A stretch of 64,000 bases of DNA from an uncultured bacterium (lineage in GTDB: Bacteria > Babelota > Babeliae > Babelales > Vermiphilaceae): NCBI GenBank assembly GCA_963702025.1, contig OY969699.1, positions 1,248,001 through 1,312,000 of the forward strand, given 5' to 3'. Below the pieces are notes generated by a model. The model saw only the letters and a program-made list of their open reading frames with translations. It ran no database searches and was not told the DNA's origin. Both the position numbers and the translations under genes were made by a program. Below are positions 14,578 to 27,075 of this stretch, piece after piece (within the stretch, counting starts at the first letter, position 1; each line of letters begins with the position of its first letter).

Positions 14578-14745
14578 ATAGTTTTGATAGAAAAAGGGTA
14601 AAAAGAGTACTATTATGCAGTATAACAAGAAAAATCAGAATCGCTAGATTTTGAGGCGTTTGACAAACAAATCCACTCTAGTACCATGAAAATACACATA
14701 ATTATTTACGGTAACATGTTTAATTCTTACAATCTGGAGGCTCTT

Positions 14746-15195
14746 ATGAACCGTTTTTTATATACTCCTGTTCTTTCACTTATTTTACTGTTTGCAACAA
14801 TTGGCGCAAAACCAAGCGATAGCAAAGATTGGTTTTCTTATGCTGAAACCGATTTAAAAGCCGCAGCAATGTTAGCTGATGCGCACATAATCGGTTATGC
14901 ACTGTATCATATTGAGCAAGCAACTGAAAAAGCCTTAAAGGCGTATTTGGTAGCAACGAACACTACGTTTGCGCTCACCCATGATCTTGTTCCGCTCCTA
15001 TCAAGTTGCGCAAGAAATGATGCTGATTTTGGCCAATTTAGTACCGATATCCGGGAAATTAATCCCTATTCAACCAAAAGCAGATATCCCAATAAATCCT
15101 ATGTAGAACCGAGCATCAGCCAAGTGAAGGAACTCATTGCGCGAGCTGCAAGCTTACTGCGTTGCATCGCGGAAAAAATTGGGTCAGTAAATTAA
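14746..15195 (+). CDS. HEPN-domain protein with signal peptide
   Basis: W..AE.DL..A, QATEKALKAYL, THDL and SRYP motifs. GGAGG RBS before MNRFLYTPVLSLILLFATIGA. Confidence 0.8.
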   Translation: MNRFLYTPVLSLILLFATIGAKPSDSKDWFSYAETDLKAAAMLADAHIIGYALYHIEQATEKALKAYLVATNTTFALTHDLVPLLSSCARNDADFGQFSTDIREINPYSTKSRYPNKSYVEPSISQVKELIARAASLLRCIAEKIGSVN

Positions 15196-16094
15196 AACCG
15201 ATAACATGCTTTTAATGTCGGGCCATTGCGATCAAAGCCGAGCCCGATATTCACCTCTTCGGCCAAATTTGCATCGATCACTTTATTGGCAGCAATACCA
15301 TAAAGCGCACCAAGGCCGGCACCGGCAATCAATTGTGAAAAATAGTGCCGATTACAATTAAGAAATATAATGCCAACCGATGCGGCAAAGAAGGTTAACG
15401 GAACGGCATATTTAGCGCCAAACCTCATGCCATACAACGTTGCAATGTAGGCGGCTTGCGCCATATGGCCTGAGGGGAAGCCACCCATTGATTGTTTATG
15501 CTCATGGCAAAAATCTTCATGCCAGGGGCGCCGACAAAAATCGGCATCAAATTTTTTTATAAGATCTTTGCCATAGACCACAAACGGAATGCCCAGGAGC
15601 AACATCCATGCCGCTTCTTGCCATTCCGGGTCACTGGAAAGAAAAAGTTGCGACCCAAATATCACAATGGGAGCTCCAACCGCAAATTGTGCCAGATCAT
15701 GGCACCATCTTGGCATTTGATTAATATTTTTATGGTTTCGGTGCGAAAAAAAATGGCATTGAAGAGGATCATCGGCAAGCCGGGCACACAAATAAACGGG
15801 CAAAGTGCTCGCAATCACAATAAAACTTTCGGTTGAAATTAGGTTGAGATTGAGCCGAATGGCATCTCTGAACGCATTGGCAACAATATTAAAACCACGA
15901 TGAAGCGTTGGGCACGGACTGCAAAAGATTCTTTTTGGTCGATCACAAGAATCACAAAACCGGTAGCCAAAATCCTTAAGACATTCAGTAGTCGGTGTAT
16001 CTGCGATCGCTTTTGTGACAATGGAAGGTGCAGCCTGAATAATAGCATTAGTGAAAAAGATCACACTCACCAGTAGAATACCATGAATACGCAT
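15192..16094 (-). CDS. PAP2-family phosphatase, exported
   Basis: K......RP, FPSGH and NRHYFSQL motifs. Start position uncertain. Confidence 0.8.
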   Translation of the reverse strand: MRIHGILLVSVIFFTNAIIQAAPSIVTKAIADTPTTECLKDFGYRFCDSCDRPKRIFCSPCPTLHRGFNIVANAFRDAIRLNLNLISTESFIVIASTLPVYLCARLADDPLQCHFFSHRNHKNINQMPRWCHDLAQFAVGAPIVIFGSQLFLSSDPEWQEAAWMLLLGIPFVVYGKDLIKKFDADFCRRPWHEDFCHEHKQSMGGFPSGHMAQAAYIATLYGMRFGAKYAVPLTFFAASVGIIFLNCNRHYFSQLIAGAGLGALYGIAANKVIDANLAEEVNIGLGFDRNGPTLKACYRF

Positions 16095-16236
16095 ACGGTG
16101 TATCCTTATAGCCACTCGCCCCCTTATTATCCTTCCCCCATTAGGGTACTTCATCATCGGCAGATAGCTCAACGATACTGAAATTTTTTATAAAAAAACA
16201 GTGGGGCCAGCGTGAATGGGGACATTCAATAACAAT

Positions 16237-16938
16237 CTACTGTTGCCAAAATAGTACCGTGCCATAAATATATTCATACTGCTGGGCAATAGTATAGTGC
16301 CAACCATCGGTAGCATTGCCATCACCATCAGCAATACGCGCACGCAAATAGTTAAGATAGTCTTTTATTATGTCAGTTTTTTTCGTCGAACATAATAAGC
16401 GAACAACTGCCAAATCAGCCTCTTTTTCTTGTTCTCTAATGTAGGGCTTTAGTGCATAAGTGAGCAATCCGTAAGAAAACAAAGAAGTAGCAGCAAGAGA
16501 GCCAATAGATGAATCAAGCACATTTTTGCTCAGATAATAGATTGTACAAACTGCCGGTATCAACGTGGCGCAAAGCCCAAGAGCTTTGGCATGATGATGA
16601 AGCGCAACGTGAGCCGCTTCGTGATACAAAAGCCAATAACGGATCGTTTCATTTTCTTGTTCGAGCAGTTCCTCATTCAACCAAATGCCAAACAGCGTAA
16701 AAGAATAGAGCTGCGCCCCAATAAGTTTTTGCGCCATCGAGTTCATCTTTTTTATAGAGACTTTTTCAAAATCCGTATAGCCAAATTCTTGCAATGCTTG
16801 TTGTATAATTTTTTGATACTGCTCGCGCGCATTTTGAGTACCAAATAGTGGCGCATAAATGGCAGATCCGGCATTAAGATTGAGGGCTAAACATGGTAAT
16901 GTCAAAAAAAAAGAAAGTGTGAACAAATGTACTTTCAT
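16237..16938 (-). CDS. M48-like Zn metallopeptidase, exported/membrane
   Basis: HEAAH followed by TMs and EKEADL. Signal peptide. Confidence 0.7.
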   Translation of the reverse strand: MKVHLFTLSFFLTLPCLALNLNAGSAIYAPLFGTQNAREQYQKIIQQALQEFGYTDFEKVSIKKMNSMAQKLIGAQLYSFTLFGIWLNEELLEQENETIRYWLLYHEAAHVALHHHAKALGLCATLIPAVCTIYYLSKNVLDSSIGSLAATSLFSYGLLTYALKPYIREQEKEADLAVVRLLCSTKKTDIIKDYLNYLRARIADGDGNATDGWHYTIAQQYEYIYGTVLFWQQ

Positions 16939-16960
16939 AAAAAAACCTTTATATACTGTT

Positions 16961-17713
16961 TTATATCTCATGTTCCTTACCAATGCAAAGCAAGATTTTC
17001 GCTCTCAGCTCTTCGGGTAAATTCTTCCATTCTTCTTTTTTTGTATGCTTGGCAACAACTTTTGATGCAAGATCAACTAAAGGCAGAGGAGGCTTAAACA
17101 ATTTTTTAAAATCTGATTCAATATCTTGGGGCAAAAGATACTCTTCATCAACGAGCCAATAACTTACCTGAGCATCCTGCATGTTGTGAATACAAGGACG
17201 AGATAAATCAAAAAGCATAGTTAATTCTTCTTTGTGTGTCCCATAAATATAGGTATTGGATGAAAAATGACGCACCGGCAAATGAGATAACATACGATGC
17301 AATAAATCTTTTTGGGTTATTTTTACCCTCTGATCGAGATCAATTTTTTTATTGAGAACCCGTTGCAACAATTCTTCTACCGCCTTACGAGCTTCCGGTG
17401 TTTTTCTTTGTGCAACCTCTAACACTAATCGCATAAAAAGTTTGGCAGTGCATGAAAAAAAAGAATATGAACTGTCATCGAGCGATTCTGTCTCATTAAA
17501 AGGGCAAAGCAATTTATACGTGTAACAAATTGGCTTCCCATTAGACTGAACAGCCACCCACTCAGGAACTATGCATGATGCTTCTAAATACCCAAATTTA
17601 TCGGGACAACATACATATTTTTTATACTCAAATTGTAGTGCATTTTTATAATTTTGGTCCATGCCAATAACGGAAGTGGTTGCCAAAAGAAAGAAGAAAT
17701 AGCTGATCTTCAT
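16961..17713 (-). CDS. Secreted paralog 3 with C-terminal SOCS/BC-box-like motif
   Basis: CCPDKFG, TQKDLLHR, PCIH and PLVDLASKVV...LPEEL. Confidence 0.75.
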   Translation of the reverse strand: MKISYFFFLLATTSVIGMDQNYKNALQFEYKKYVCCPDKFGYLEASCIVPEWVAVQSNGKPICYTYKLLCPFNETESLDDSSYSFFSCTAKLFMRLVLEVAQRKTPEARKAVEELLQRVLNKKIDLDQRVKITQKDLLHRMLSHLPVRHFSSNTYIYGTHKEELTMLFDLSRPCIHNMQDAQVSYWLVDEEYLLPQDIESDFKKLFKPPLPLVDLASKVVAKHTKKEEWKNLPEELRAKILLCIGKEHEI

Positions 17714-18456
17714 ATTTGTTTAGGCCCCTTCAGTTGTAAATTTTTTAATCGTTCTTTAAGTTCTTGCGGCAAAAATTCACATTCATCTTCAGTTTTGTGT
17801 GAGGCAACGCACTTCAAAGTTAAATCCACCAGCGAGGGAACTTGTTTAAAGAGTTTTTTATAATTAAGTTCAGTTTCTTCTTTAACAAAGCTTAATTTCT
17901 CCGCATAAGCAAGCAGATATTCGATTTTGAATTTTTTGATGGCATGAATACAAGGCTCCGCGCAAAAAAAACATATAAACCCGTGGCTAGAACAATAGGT
18001 AAACTTGCGACCGCTCTCAAATTCTTTACCGGAAATATTAAGATGCGAAATGAGCCGATAAACTAAATCTTTGTGCGTTATCCACGCTTCATCTTGGTCA
18101 AGAATAATTTTTTTAGCAGCAACTTTATCCATTATTTCTTTAAATGATTTGCCCGCTTGAGGGGTTTTTATACGAGCAACTTCAGAAACTAGAAGCTTAA
18201 TATCGGTAGATTTACATGAAACAGTATATGATTCGTCATTAAAATCAGCTGAGTCAAACCCGCACATATATGTCTTAATAGGCGGTTTATTGAGAAATAT
18301 AAAATCGTAATTCTGAACTTCTAAATAACCAAATTCATTAGGACAACAGGTGTATTTTCTGATTATTTGCAGCTCTAGCAATGATTGTTGCCTTTCCATA
18401 CCTGCAAGAAAAATGGGTAGAACAAGAGATACAATAATGCTGAATCTACCATACAT
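17710..18456 (-). CDS. Secreted paralog 2 with C-terminal SOCS/BC-box-like motif
   Basis: CCPNEFG, THKDLVYR, PCIH and PSLVDLTLKCV...LPQEL. Confidence 0.75.
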   Translation of the reverse strand: MYGRFSIIVSLVLPIFLAGMERQQSLLELQIIRKYTCCPNEFGYLEVQNYDFIFLNKPPIKTYMCGFDSADFNDESYTVSCKSTDIKLLVSEVARIKTPQAGKSFKEIMDKVAAKKIILDQDEAWITHKDLVYRLISHLNISGKEFESGRKFTYCSSHGFICFFCAEPCIHAIKKFKIEYLLAYAEKLSFVKEETELNYKKLFKQVPSLVDLTLKCVASHKTEDECEFLPQELKERLKNLQLKGPKQI

Positions 18457-18459
18457 ATA

Positions 18460-19161
18460 TTAATCCTGGTGCAAGAATTCTTTTAATCTCTCTGTAAGTT
18501 CTTCTGGCAAAATTTTCATTGCCGCCTCCTTTTTATGCTTTGCAACAACGGGTAATGCAAGATCAACTAGCGAAGGAATCTGACTATTGAGCAGCTTATT
18601 GAAACCTTTTGTAATATTCGAGGTATCCATAATGTTTTGTCTCCAGTAGTAGTCATAAAAACAATCAAATTCTACCGTTCTTGTTGCGTGGATACACGGC
18701 TTAAAACTTACCAATACTCTGTTTCCATTTATAGAAAGACAATAATAACCTCGATTCCCAAGATTTTGCCAATTCCATTCAATAGTAGGAAGAAGCCTAT
18801 GCACGAGATCCTTATGGGTGATTTTTGTATCCGGAAGAGTAAGATTAATCTTTTTTTGATGAATTTTACCGAGCACTTTTTGCACTCTTTCTTGGGTTGC
18901 TGTATCTGTTTCATGGGCATTATGCATAATCATGTGCATAAGTAGAGTTGGATCAACTGAGACACAATAGTTTATATCATCACAGTTTGTTGTTTCTGTG
19001 GCCGAACAAAGATATGAGGGCAAATAACTATATTCTGCTAATGGTATTAAGCTTCCAAATTTATCACCACAGCAAAGCCATTTTTTATGCTCGAATTTTG
19101 TTTCATCCATGCATGCAAGGGAAGCAAACACAAAAAGAAGTAAGCAGCTTCTCAAATACAT
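18460..19161 (-). CDS. Secreted paralog 1 with C-terminal SOCS/BC-box-like motif
   Basis: CCGDKFG, THKDLVHR, PCIH and PSLVDLALPVV...LPEEL. Start at MYLRSC, just after the gatA stop. Confidence 0.75.
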   Translation of the reverse strand: MYLRSCLLLFVFASLACMDETKFEHKKWLCCGDKFGSLIPLAEYSYLPSYLCSATETTNCDDINYCVSVDPTLLMHMIMHNAHETDTATQERVQKVLGKIHQKKINLTLPDTKITHKDLVHRLLPTIEWNWQNLGNRGYYCLSINGNRVLVSFKPCIHATRTVEFDCFYDYYWRQNIMDTSNITKGFNKLLNSQIPSLVDLALPVVAKHKKEAAMKILPEELTERLKEFLHQD

Positions 19162-19165
19162 GCCA

Positions 19166-20611
19166 CTAATACCCTTTTGGGTGCATTGTATGCCAAGAAT
19201 TTTGCTGTTCATACGCATACGCTATTTTAAACATTAGCTCTTCACCCAAATGCGGTGCGATAATTTGAAAACCGATCGGCAAGCCGGATTTAGAAAATCC
19301 ACCCGGAATAGATACTGCCGCATTGCCTGCTAAGTTTGCCGAGCAGGTAAAATAATCTTGCAGATCCATTTGCAATTTATCAACATCAAAAGCGCCAAAT
19401 TTAAAGGCCGGCGTTGGTGAGGTTGGCATCAAAAGCACCGTAACATCTTTAAAAGTATCCACAAATGCTTGGCGCATAACTGCTTGCACTTGCTTTGCCT
19501 TTTTATAATAGGCATCCGCATGGCCGGCAGAAAGCACATAGTTACCGATCATGATACGGCTTTTCACTTCAGCGCCAAAACCATCATGGCGCGTATTGGC
19601 ATACATTTTTTCAAGTGTTTTTGCGTCTTTGGCGCGCAAGCCATAGCGCACGCCATCGAAGCGGCCCAAATTTGATGCCGCTTCGGCACGGCTCACAATA
19701 AAATAAACAGCCGTGGCATAATCAAGCACCGGAATTTTTATTTTTTTAATCGTGGCGCCTAATTTTTCATAGACTTGTATTGCCTGCTCAATGGCCGCGA
19801 TTACTTCAGGATCCATGCCCTCAGCATACAATGCATTTTCAACGATACCGATGGTGCAATTTGGGGGGAGTTTACCATCCAATGTTTTGGTGTAATTTTT
19901 TTTCTCCACGGTCAAACTGGAAGAATCTTTAGGATCATGACCGGCGATAGCAGATAATACTAGCGCATTATCGTACACGGTTCGGGTACAAATACCAATT
20001 TGATCAAGTGAAGAACCATAGGCAACCAGCCCGTAACGGGATACCAGACCATAGGTTGGCTTGCTGCCAACAATATTGCAAAATGCAGCCGGCTGGCGCA
20101 CCGAACCACCCGTTTCTGAACCGAGCGCCCATGGTACCAAGCCCGCGGCAACCGCCGCAGCCGAACCACCACTCGAACCACCGGGTACGCGTGAGTGGTC
20201 CCATGGATTTTTTGTCTTTTGATATGCTGAAGTTTCAGTTGAACTTCCCATGGCAAATTCATCACAATTAGCGCGCCCGATCAACAGAGCGCCCTGCTCT
20301 TTGAGCCGCAGGGTGGCAGTGGCATCGAAGGTTGATTCAAAACCCTCTAAAATTTTAGAGGAACAAGAAACTTTGCGATCCTTTTGGCAAATATTATCTT
20401 TCAAAAGTCCGGGGATTCCTGCAAGCGCGCCATCGGTTTTGCTCACCGCAACTACCGAGTCTTTCTCAAAGATCTCAAGCGCCGAACCCAAATCGGGATC
20501 ATATTTTTTAAAACGTGCAACAGAATGCTCGAGCAGCTCTTGAGCGGTAATTTCATTAGTATCTAGTTTCGTGCGCAATTCTTTGATTGACGCAAAGGAT
20601 AAATTGTTCAT
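19166..20611 (-). CDS. gatA: Asp/Glu-tRNA amidotransferase subunit A
   Basis: DEFAMGSSTE, PGGSSGGSAAAV, GSETGGSVRQPA and RFDGVRYG. Confidence 0.97.
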   Translation of the reverse strand: MNNLSFASIKELRTKLDTNEITAQELLEHSVARFKKYDPDLGSALEIFEKDSVVAVSKTDGALAGIPGLLKDNICQKDRKVSCSSKILEGFESTFDATATLRLKEQGALLIGRANCDEFAMGSSTETSAYQKTKNPWDHSRVPGGSSGGSAAAVAAGLVPWALGSETGGSVRQPAAFCNIVGSKPTYGLVSRYGLVAYGSSLDQIGICTRTVYDNALVLSAIAGHDPKDSSSLTVEKKNYTKTLDGKLPPNCTIGIVENALYAEGMDPEVIAAIEQAIQVYEKLGATIKKIKIPVLDYATAVYFIVSRAEAASNLGRFDGVRYGLRAKDAKTLEKMYANTRHDGFGAEVKSRIMIGNYVLSAGHADAYYKKAKQVQAVMRQAFVDTFKDVTVLLMPTSPTPAFKFGAFDVDKLQMDLQDYFTCSANLAGNAAVSIPGGFSKSGLPIGFQIIAPHLGEELMFKIAYAYEQQNSWHTMHPKGY

Positions 20612-25375: not shown

Positions 25376-25410
25376 AGAGAGAGACAGTTTCATCTGTCTC
25401 TCTCTTTTTT
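25376..25410 (+). terminator. Rho-independent terminator
   Basis: Stem AGAGAGAGACAG/CTGTCTCTCTCT followed by a T-run, between convergent genes. Confidence 0.8.
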
Positions 25411-27001
25411 ATTGTGATTCATAAAAGAACAAAACCGGCGTTTGCTTGCGATCCGAGCCATATCCTTGTTGGGCTATTTTTGCCATTTCTTGTAAAGAAA
25501 CTGCACTAATAGCAGTATCATTACAAAAATACCAAGAATTCCCTACACGCACATATGAAGTATAATGGCCACCTTGCGGATCACCGGCATGGATAACCAC
25601 TCCCTTGAGCCGATATTTTGGTAATGATTTATCAGAAAATGGGTTTATGTTCATATTTTCTAGTTCAAATGAAATTGGTATTCCTTTTTTAATAAATATT
25701 TTATTTTCGGGATTATATATTTTGCGGCGTAAGCTAATAATAAAATATTTGCCCGTTCTTTCTAACTGGCTTAACTTTTTAATTGTTTGTATCCCAGACC
25801 CAATCGTTGTAGATTCAAAAAAACCTTCCATACAATTAATTAATGTTTTATCAGTTTCATCTATCGGCAAAGAAAGAATAGTTTCTTGCGTAATTTTTGG
25901 GCGACGATTAACAAATTGCAGTATGTCAGGATTTTGATTTGCAACATACACAAGACCGGGATATCTTTTCTCGAGCGCCGACAATGTTGGACACTCTTTG
26001 ATCAGTTGGCTAATCTTCAAAGAACCAAGCGCAGGATTATTTTGTAATACGTCATACAATTCGGGATAAAAATTCCCAATATCCCTTATCGTGGTGTTTT
26101 CTAACCCACGAATAACCGTCGATTTTACAGAAAAAGTAACAAGAGAAGCAATTGTATCAACATTCTTGATTGAAACAAAATCGGATTTAGCATCCGCTCC
26201 GATTAGACCGGTAAGAAGCAGCTGCACAAATTCCGCCGCATCTTGGGGTGTTCCTTGGCTTTCTCCCATCATTTTCCAGCCCTGAACACAAAATTCGAGC
26301 GGATTCACCTCCGCTTCTTGCGACGTCTTAAGTTTTTGTATAAGTTTTATATAGCTCTGCGCAATGGTATTTGGCCGATAGGATTCAGCATTTTGCACCA
26401 ACATATCCGTTAAACGATCCAGTCCAAACAAGCATTGAATGGCCGCGTTCATAAAACAACGATTGCCGGTTTTAGGATTTCGCTGCTCAAAATTAACCAA
26501 TCCGTGCGGCTCGCCCGGGATTGCTTTTGTAATGTTTGGAGTTTTTGGAATTGCCGGAAGTGGTCGAGCAAGAACTTTTGGCGCAACAGGGGTTACTGGT
26601 CGCGCTACCGGTTTTTGTATTGTAGCTTGAACTTTATCTATTAATTGTCCCAATACAATATTTGCAAACTGCTCTAAAGAGATAGTGCCATAGATCTTGC
26701 TGGTAATATTTTCTTTTTTATACTCAGGCTTTAATGCGAATTCTTTAATTGTTTGCAATTTTTCAAGAAGACCAGGCAAATTCCCCGAGGGCCTATTCAG
26801 CTCTTTTTGCGCCTCAACCAAAAAATCTTTTACTAACGTTATTCCGGGAGATCGCGCTGAAGATATATCTTCAATCACATTTTCCAAATGATCATTGATA
26901 CGACCGTATTCAGAAAGCACTTCCATTGAAACAACAGTCATCATCGATAAAACAAGTATCTGCACTATCACATGATTAATTTTTTTTGCATCACGTGTCA
27001 T
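25409..27001 (-). CDS. Eukaryote-like ubiquitin-specific protease (peptidase C19/USP), exported
   Basis: Cys box GLVN...GNRCFMNAAIQCL, QDAAEF, His box YRLKGVVIHAG...GGHYTSYVR...WYFCND, and PVLFFYE. AAGGAG RBS before the ATG at 27001. Confidence 0.9.
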   Translation of the reverse strand: MTRDAKKINHVIVQILVLSMMTVVSMEVLSEYGRINDHLENVIEDISSARSPGITLVKDFLVEAQKELNRPSGNLPGLLEKLQTIKEFALKPEYKKENITSKIYGTISLEQFANIVLGQLIDKVQATIQKPVARPVTPVAPKVLARPLPAIPKTPNITKAIPGEPHGLVNFEQRNPKTGNRCFMNAAIQCLFGLDRLTDMLVQNAESYRPNTIAQSYIKLIQKLKTSQEAEVNPLEFCVQGWKMMGESQGTPQDAAEFVQLLLTGLIGADAKSDFVSIKNVDTIASLVTFSVKSTVIRGLENTTIRDIGNFYPELYDVLQNNPALGSLKISQLIKECPTLSALEKRYPGLVYVANQNPDILQFVNRRPKITQETILSLPIDETDKTLINCMEGFFESTTIGSGIQTIKKLSQLERTGKYFIISLRRKIYNPENKIFIKKGIPISFELENMNINPFSDKSLPKYRLKGVVIHAGDPQGGHYTSYVRVGNSWYFCNDTAISAVSLQEMAKIAQQGYGSDRKQTPVLFFYESQ

Positions 27002-27075
27002 TATTTCTCCTTTCTTTACCCGCGCATAATAAAAAATATAGGTAATTGCGTGGCTCATTAACAAGAGAAATATTT

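Follow-up and report, generated by a model that had tools for sequence, protein, structure and literature searches.

The stretch of DNA analysed here (the window) comprises 64,000 nucleotides of an uncultured bacterium of the Vermiphilaceae (positions 1,248,001 to 1,312,000 of contig OY969699.1, assembly GCA_963702025.1), whose genome (G000) consists of one contig of 1.6 Mb. The analysis concerns three paralogous genes on the minus strand, packed directly behind gatC-gatA-like genes, whose products end in a tail resembling the BC box and cullin box of Elongin C-cullin substrate receptors. A preliminary description made from the sequence had reported three adjacent paralogues of about 250 amino acids (aa) downstream of gatA, which has been confirmed with proteins of 250, 248 and 233 aa encoded on the minus strand. 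The gatC-gatA-like labels are presumptive, taken from that description and from sequence signatures; an amidase signature is visible in the gatA open reading frame (ORF).

16961-17713, minus strand: paralogue 1 (P0003), 250 aa, with a signal-like N-terminus, an uncharacterised body of ~190 aa and a C-terminal BC/cullin-box-like module
17710-18456, minus strand: paralogue 2 (P0001), 248 aa, architecture as in P0003, with Thr at the BC-box Cys position
18460-19161, minus strand: paralogue 3 (P0002), 233 aa, architecture as in P0003 and P0001
19166-20611, minus strand: gatA-like amidase gene, the upstream context of the trio

The spacings in the order gatA, P0002, P0001, P0003 are 4, 3 and -4 bp. 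For P0002, the start at 19161 has been preferred over an upstream ATG at 19218 because the latter overlaps gatA. The motifs CCxxxFG, T(H/Q)KDLxxR and PCIH quoted earlier, together with the three quoted tails, have all been found in the trio and can be aligned with one another; the body of P0003 carries CC, TxKDxxHR and CxH.

The tail and its two motifs

The published BC box reads [TSP]-L-x3-[CSA]-x3-phi (PMC6232478, PMC4878042, PMC6918085), and the cullin box has been given as phi-P-x2-phi-x3-phi for Cul2, with LP-phi-P required for Cul5 (PMC13061254, PMC6918085). The corresponding segments of the trio are as follows.

17054-17083, minus strand: BC-box-like helix of P0003, residues 211-220, matching [TSP]-L-x3-[CSA]-x3-phi; model helix 212-223
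16994-17020, minus strand: cullin-box-like segment of P0003, residues 232-240, matching phi-P-x2-phi-x3-phi
17806-17835, minus strand: BC-box-like segment of P0001, residues 208-217, with a single deviation (Thr) from the published pattern
17746-17772, minus strand: cullin-box-like segment of P0001, residues 229-237
18544-18573, minus strand: BC-box-like segment of P0002, residues 197-206, matching the published pattern
18484-18510, minus strand: cullin-box-like segment of P0002, residues 218-226

Counted over the 17 complete family tails, the motif is conserved among homologues: the Leu of the BC box is invariant, position 6 is occupied by Ala (10), Cys (6) or Thr (1), and position 10 is Val, Ile or Leu throughout, with the whole pattern matched by 15 tails (exceptions P0001 and P0024). 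The Pro of the cullin box and the Leu or Ile that follows it are equally invariant (17/17 each). The Cul2 box, a loose pattern common to the poxviral F-box, is matched by all 17 tails at 8-15 residues downstream of the BC box; none matches the Cul5 box (phi-x-x-L-P-phi-P). As judged from these sequences, the tail is of the VHL/Cul2 type and not of the SOCS/Cul5 type, since the Cul2 box is found in 17/17 tails and the Cul5 box in 0/17. The SOCS label of the preliminary description has consequently been given up, also because Pfam SOCS_box yields no score for the trio. The BC-box pattern which it had assigned to all three tails holds for P0002 and P0003 and fails in P0001, where Thr lies outside [CSA]; the replacement of Cys by Ala, which it had regarded as non-canonical, is no departure because the published consensus allows Ala.

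An AlphaFold2 model of the P0003 tail contains three helices (212-223, 226-231 and 234-249, pLDDT, a per-residue confidence score, about 80-92), so that the tail is predicted to be helical as had been expected, with the BC-like helix first. Taken alone, the ten-residue BC-box pattern is uninformative, being common in the genome (521 of 1,701 ORFs, 107 of them within the last 55 aa). The bipartite pattern of a BC box and phi-P-x-[ED]-phi, which has been composed after the hits were seen, occurs in 13 of the 1,701 ORFs, compared with 0.45 +/- 0.70 (maximum 3) over 200 shuffles and none in reversed ORFs.

Spread of the module and the family of bodies

The tail is a detachable module of ~35 residues. 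Iteration from the family tails has led to unrelated proteins, with no reversed-sequence decoy below E 0.05. A profile of 42 sequences matches 29 of the 1,701 ORFs of this genome at E≤0.05, most of the 29 being training sequences, and the best reversed decoy stands at E 1; within these ORFs the module is N-terminal in 12, C-terminal in 12 and internal in 5. The preliminary description, confined to three genes, had thus under-called a genome-wide element. Elsewhere in the phylum, a profile of 23 sequences finds 21 of 200 other genomes at E≤0.01, and in 27 loci cut from such genomes the carriers, inspected by eye, mostly have a hydrophobic leader, with the module directly after the leader or terminal. 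Pfam assigns ankyrin repeats to 10 of the 42 carriers, WD40/propeller domains to 8 and BclA_C to 1, leaving 23 without a match; ankyrin and WD40/propeller are the usual receptor domains. A protein-database search with the module profile has returned 15 proteins, none of them named as eukaryotic. These results show a conserved bipartite motif in a modular element that recurs in some two dozen further proteins of the genome; the tail behaves as a mobile module on ankyrin, WD40 and uncharacterised domains.

Two carriers show composite architectures: the first (G000:C1:1449320-1450411, L003) joins an F-box-like start to ankyrins and a C-terminal BC-like module, and the second (G000:C1:685413-688589, L010) consists of a BC-like module, WD40, BTB and again WD40.

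The family defined by the bodies is narrower. The profile of the three proteins, a step suggested by the preliminary description, has yielded 59 representatives at 50% identity; eight copies lie in this genome, and the range is limited to 7 of 201 phylum genomes, among them all 3 other members of the genus. The tail is present in 18 of 60 family proteins (one cut short) and absent from 42, some of which may be fragments; the tail-less paralogues at G000 1420831, 1422331 and 1428048 stop exactly where the tail would start. A tree of the bodies alone requires the tail to have been gained or lost 5 times (3 or more when judged by starred branches), and none of 200 bootstrap trees has a single change. 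In 106 of 136 pairs the tails are more alike than the bodies (36% against 28% identity), and within the trio bodies are 22-34% and tails 38-59% identical. As P0002 falls outside the P0001+P0003 group in the body tree, the trio is either old or has been put together from different branches.

By regular expression, CC and CxH are both found in 25 of the 60 proteins, neither in 28 and one only in 7, with the CC of P0019 missed by the expression; CxH occurs in every tailed member. The co-occurrence of the two motifs in these sequences fits a putative shared metal site, for which the preliminary description had suggested zinc. Modelled alone, the body is a confident, compact alpha/beta domain (pLDDT 91.8; pTM, a global confidence score, 0.88). 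Its best VIA-align match has Z 3.2, none of 48,161 chains reaching Z≥5, and Foldseek searches of PDB or BFVD with the body and the whole protein have given no match at E≤0.001, which does not prove that the modelled fold is new. A Pfam scan of 17 family members has likewise found nothing above cut-off; matches to CEP104 TOG, HepT and TSTD2 have been dropped as single or sub-threshold. The two matches of the family profile among PDB sequences are both by chance, and a profile match in G183 (E 8.5e-4) lacks the family motif on inspection. When 7,855 candidates with lengths from 495 to 2,000 aa were examined, a longer, fused form did not turn up, which is weak evidence. Five tail-less family members lie in an island of orphan leader-bearing genes (G000:C1:1420831-1430856, L009), with an ORF labelled by eye as transposase-like nearby, at 1414784.

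Candidate partners and competing interpretations

We read the bacterium as a member of the Babeliales/Dependentiae, and Dependentiae have been described as protist parasites (PMC6561590, PMC4776705). We consider it the best explanation, with a probability of roughly 0.6, that the trio encodes secreted mimics of Elongin C-cullin substrate receptors carrying an uncharacterised target domain. The proteins would be exported by Sec and reach the cytosol of a protist host by a secretin-dependent route or in vesicles; two secretins are encoded in the genome, and both type II secretion and vesicles have been described for Dependentiae. There the first tail helix would dock on Elongin C and the LP-helix on a cullin, which by consensus would be of the Cul2 type, with the host possibly using another such as Cul3. 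The body, with a putative CC...CxH metal site, would present a host target for ubiquitylation. The E3 adaptor family proposed in the preliminary description has in this way been retained on the grounds of motif conservation and modularity, with its SOCS assignment removed.

Links of the module to known boxes are individually weak and point in the same direction. One module joined to ankyrins (L018, G000 1364930) is the only one of the genome to reach the SOCS_box cut-off (PF07525, 23.5 bits), scoring 26.2 bits as an isolated segment and 24.5 bits when the genome was searched; against a profile built without it, hhalign gives a probability of 57% (E 1e-4). Across the phylum, SOCS_box finds 6 of 201 genomes and exceeds its cut-off in G000 only, and the other five matches have been left unused because they are sub-cut-off and three contain stops. 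The modelled tail aligns with residues 72-112 of ZSWIM8 (Z 3.6, root-mean-square deviation 1.9, 37 residues), at 35% the highest identity among the 50 structural matches listed, and with APPBP2 8-54 (Z 3.7, deviation 2.8, 44 residues). The BC-cullin box of ZSWIM8 spans 71-111 (PMC13083262), and VHL-box proteins include APPBP2 and KLHDC3 (PMC4878042). The module profile weakly matches ASB9 222-260 (E 0.6, with L018 included in the profile), KLHDC3 337-365 (E 0.95) and, with both module halves, the end of a leucine-rich repeat (LRR) protein (PDB 3goz chain A 317-351, E 0.6-1.4). We take 3goz to be Legionella LegL7, and to judge from this sequence match further intracellular bacteria may carry the module.

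Among known systems, the module resembles the VHL-box receptors of CRL2, a cullin-RING ligase (VHL, APPBP2, KLHDC3, PRAME and FEM1; PMC4878042, PMC13061254), with which it shares the bipartite consensus, its order and spacing, the weak APPBP2 and KLHDC3 matches and a box at either end of repeat proteins. It differs in being bacterial, with signal-like N-termini, a body unrelated to known receptor domains, no score on Pfam VHL_C and a host that may lack Cul2. The likeness to ZSWIM8 of the Elongin BC-CUL3 ligase (PDB 9rwz; PMC13083262) lies in the tail alignment over its box, whereas the trio has no SWIM or dimerisation domain and Z is low. With the SOCS-box ASB, WSB and SOCS proteins the trio shares the C-terminal position and the predicted three helices, and the genome elsewhere shows the pairing with ankyrin and WD40 and the one module at cut-off; the absence of LP-phi-P from the family tails and of a Pfam score in the trio set it apart.

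Several results weigh against the reading of the trio as receptor mimics. SOCS_box gives no score for the three window tails or for any of the 42 modules of the profile alignment, and genome searches with VHL_C (PF17211) and Elongin_A have not matched the trio, so that the comparison with SOCS_box and VHL models suggested earlier has left its C-termini unmatched. The whole L018 protein reaches 20.5 bits on SOCS_box, below cut-off, and the profile from which it had been left out does not find it at E≤0.05. The structural and PDB links are all sub-significant and rank equally with unrelated helical or LRR matches; a single tail against PDB sequences has no match, and ESM Atlas no usable match for the tail. 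According to PMC13061254, InterPro has no general BC-Cul2-box model. With regard to the secretion claimed earlier, signal-like N-termini are present, yet the crude hydrophobicity rule behind this call flags 957 of 1,701 ORFs (44% signal-bearing in Chromulinavorax; PMC6561590); as over half of the ORFs have them, they do not show delivery to a host. The body appears to work without the tail, since 42 of the 60 family proteins have none. Finally, Cul2 and Cul5 have been argued to be animal-specific (PMC2785787). On the other side, Elongin C pairs with Cul3 in the ZSWIM8 ligase (PMC13083262) and reportedly in yeast (PMC2785787).

The last points also bear on an alternative in which the module binds host Elongin C and forms no productive ligase, serving as a decoy, stabiliser or localisation handle while the bodies act alone. 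The many tail-less proteins, the copies that retain the BC-like half only (L009, L011, L012 and L013) and protist hosts which may lack Cul2 and Cul5 (PMC2785787) would suit it; the pairing of Elongin C with Cul3 and a cullin-box half conserved in the family to the same degree as its BC counterpart (Pro 17/17, next Leu/Ile 17/17) argue against it, and we regard this alternative as improbable, if the least so of those weighed here.

Among the Pfam scores of the window tails, the highest is that of P0003 on PRANC (E 0.003-0.005, 18.5 against a cut-off of 25.8 bits), and the consensus for the poxviral F-box is the same as that for the Cul2 box (PMC6232478); both points further weigh against an Elongin C-binding tail. 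Both would be explained if the tail were a truncated C-terminal F-box of the PRANC kind that binds Skp1-Cul1, its second half matching the poxviral consensus. PRANC, however, is matched by only one of 17 family members and one of 42 modules, and the genome has an F-box class of its own: six leader-bearing F-box-like proteins (G000:C1:115246, 509153, 902572, 904828, 906267 and 1360887) have the downstream F-box helix motif and lack an upstream BC-like helix. Among the 29 module matches the downstream motif is absent from 28 and the BC pattern present in 23; the single exception belongs to the F-box class and was matched through its LP half. Truncated viral F-boxes would escape the expression used for the downstream motif; the trio tails end 16-20 residues from LP. 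By sequence, F-box-like proteins and carriers of the BC-like module are distinct classes, which lowers the F-box interpretation to a quite unlikely one.

The genome encodes further candidate components of a ubiquitin toolkit, among them one gene in the window:

25409-27064, minus strand: USP-type deubiquitinase with a hydrophobic leader, Pfam UCH E 2.8e-31, Cys-box and His-box residues visible

This enzyme is likely to be host-directed. Skp1_POZ-like domains have been matched four times in this genome inside long ORFs (G000:C1:1447767, 401109, 400089 and 686958; L127-L130) and in 33 of 201 phylum genomes (L131-L149); these ORFs are possibly fused adaptors that would reach a cullin without host Skp1. 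The predicted F-box-like, Skp1/POZ-like and USP-type genes together support an action on host ubiquitin.

The same Skp1_POZ-like domains, here and in the 33 genomes, could instead read the module within an export or effector system of the bacterium itself, as might a chaperone, with the likeness to a BC box being convergent. Such a docking tag would agree with the exported look of all carriers examined (mostly a hydrophobic leader, by eye) and with a statistically weak homology to eukaryotic boxes. Its position is free, N-terminal, internal or C-terminal, unlike that of most export signals; it is missing from the majority of signal-bearing ORFs, and conservation sits exactly on the BC-box and cullin-box positions; the best bacterial Skp1-like domain is, moreover, much closer to Skp1 (E 5e-17) than to Elongin C (E 0.05). 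We rate this tag as improbable, almost on a par with the unproductive Elongin C binder.

A direct binding of ubiquitin by the helix-LP-helix half, as in a UBM (ubiquitin-binding motif), appears very unlikely. Profiles weakly match fragments of REV1 and polymerase iota with the second half only (E 0.4-0.6), presumably their UBMs, and one module has a sub-threshold Pfam UBM match (E 0.02). The REV1 and polymerase iota matches are not significant, and the invariant first helix, which in the family always precedes the LP half, would be left unexplained.

Returning to the receptor-mimic reading, we put forward tentatively, at somewhat under even odds, the wider proposal that Babeliales maintain a shuffled library of 25-30 Elongin C-cullin receptors per genome beside F-box, Skp1-fusion and deubiquitinase genes, of which the trio would be members with a new metal-binding target domain. 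With comparable reserve, this library may be placed beside the viral MGF505/MGF360 and ANK/BC families as their equivalent in bacteria. In poxvirus ANK/BC proteins (PMC6232478) and in MGF505/MGF360 of African swine fever virus (PMC13769053), a parasite has likewise expanded proteins that share an Elongin-docking box beside divergent domains; those families are viral and experimentally proven, whereas here a bacterium carries a box, predicted from sequence, that has been exchanged between unrelated bodies. The F-box/PRANC effectors Legionella AnkB and Orientia Anks resemble the proposed mimics as bacterial substrate receptors that borrow a host cullin ligase; they use Skp1-Cul1, and the module differs by its BC-like helix and from the F-box class of this genome. 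A SOCS/BC annotation in Endozoicomonas (PMC9743535) and a suggestion for Listeria InlC (PMC6918085) also concern BC/SOCS-like sequence in host-associated bacteria; as far as these texts are available, they remain a single annotation and a speculation, with neither a library nor Dependentiae. PE5 of M. tuberculosis binds a CRL2 receptor through a degron (PMC12259106), a different mechanism.

Among the literature matches listed, which do not cover subscription papers, no bacterial BC-box adaptor family or library has been found, nor BC boxes or a SOCS box in Dependentiae; a search for Legionella effectors on CUL2/ELOC has returned nothing, and neither SOCS, Elongin, BC-box, Cul2 nor Cul5 occurs in PMC7830128. 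Viruses are established hijackers of Elongin BC-cullin ligases, and bacteria are known mainly for F-box mimicry. If the proposal holds, dozens of BC-box adaptors in one genome would extend this hijacking to bacteria, supply a concrete, testable role for numerous orphan exported proteins in a parasitic phylum that is poorly understood, and offer a means of probing the Elongin C-cullin ligases of protists. Since Cul2 and Cul5 may be absent from protist hosts, the library would also reveal the cullin partner of protist Elongin C; because current Pfam models miss the module, boxes like it may have gone unnoticed in further intracellular bacteria.

Neighbouring genes and the gatA locus in relatives

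Downstream of the trio lie three further genes, which are also found near gatA in close relatives.

16237-16983, minus strand: M48-type metallopeptidase
15192-16172, minus strand: PAP2 protein
14686-15195, plus strand: leader-bearing HEPN-domain protein

Promoter and terminator scans of the locus have been no better than chance, and no RNA holder is listed. The locus has been compared among the best 80 GatA relatives (46-81% identical), of which 3 have a family gene at this position; G124 carries a single tail-less copy and G155 one tail-less copy plus one with a masked end. The position behind gatA has the look of a hotspot where effector-like genes collect.

Two leader-bearing proteins encoded at the syntenic position in relatives (L028:2089-3126 and L050:5673-6713) show a RING-like Cys/His pattern by eye. 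In another relative (L048, 1796-2359 and 2583-3239), two unrelated proteins follow gatA, each with a C-terminal module of the same kind as that of the trio.

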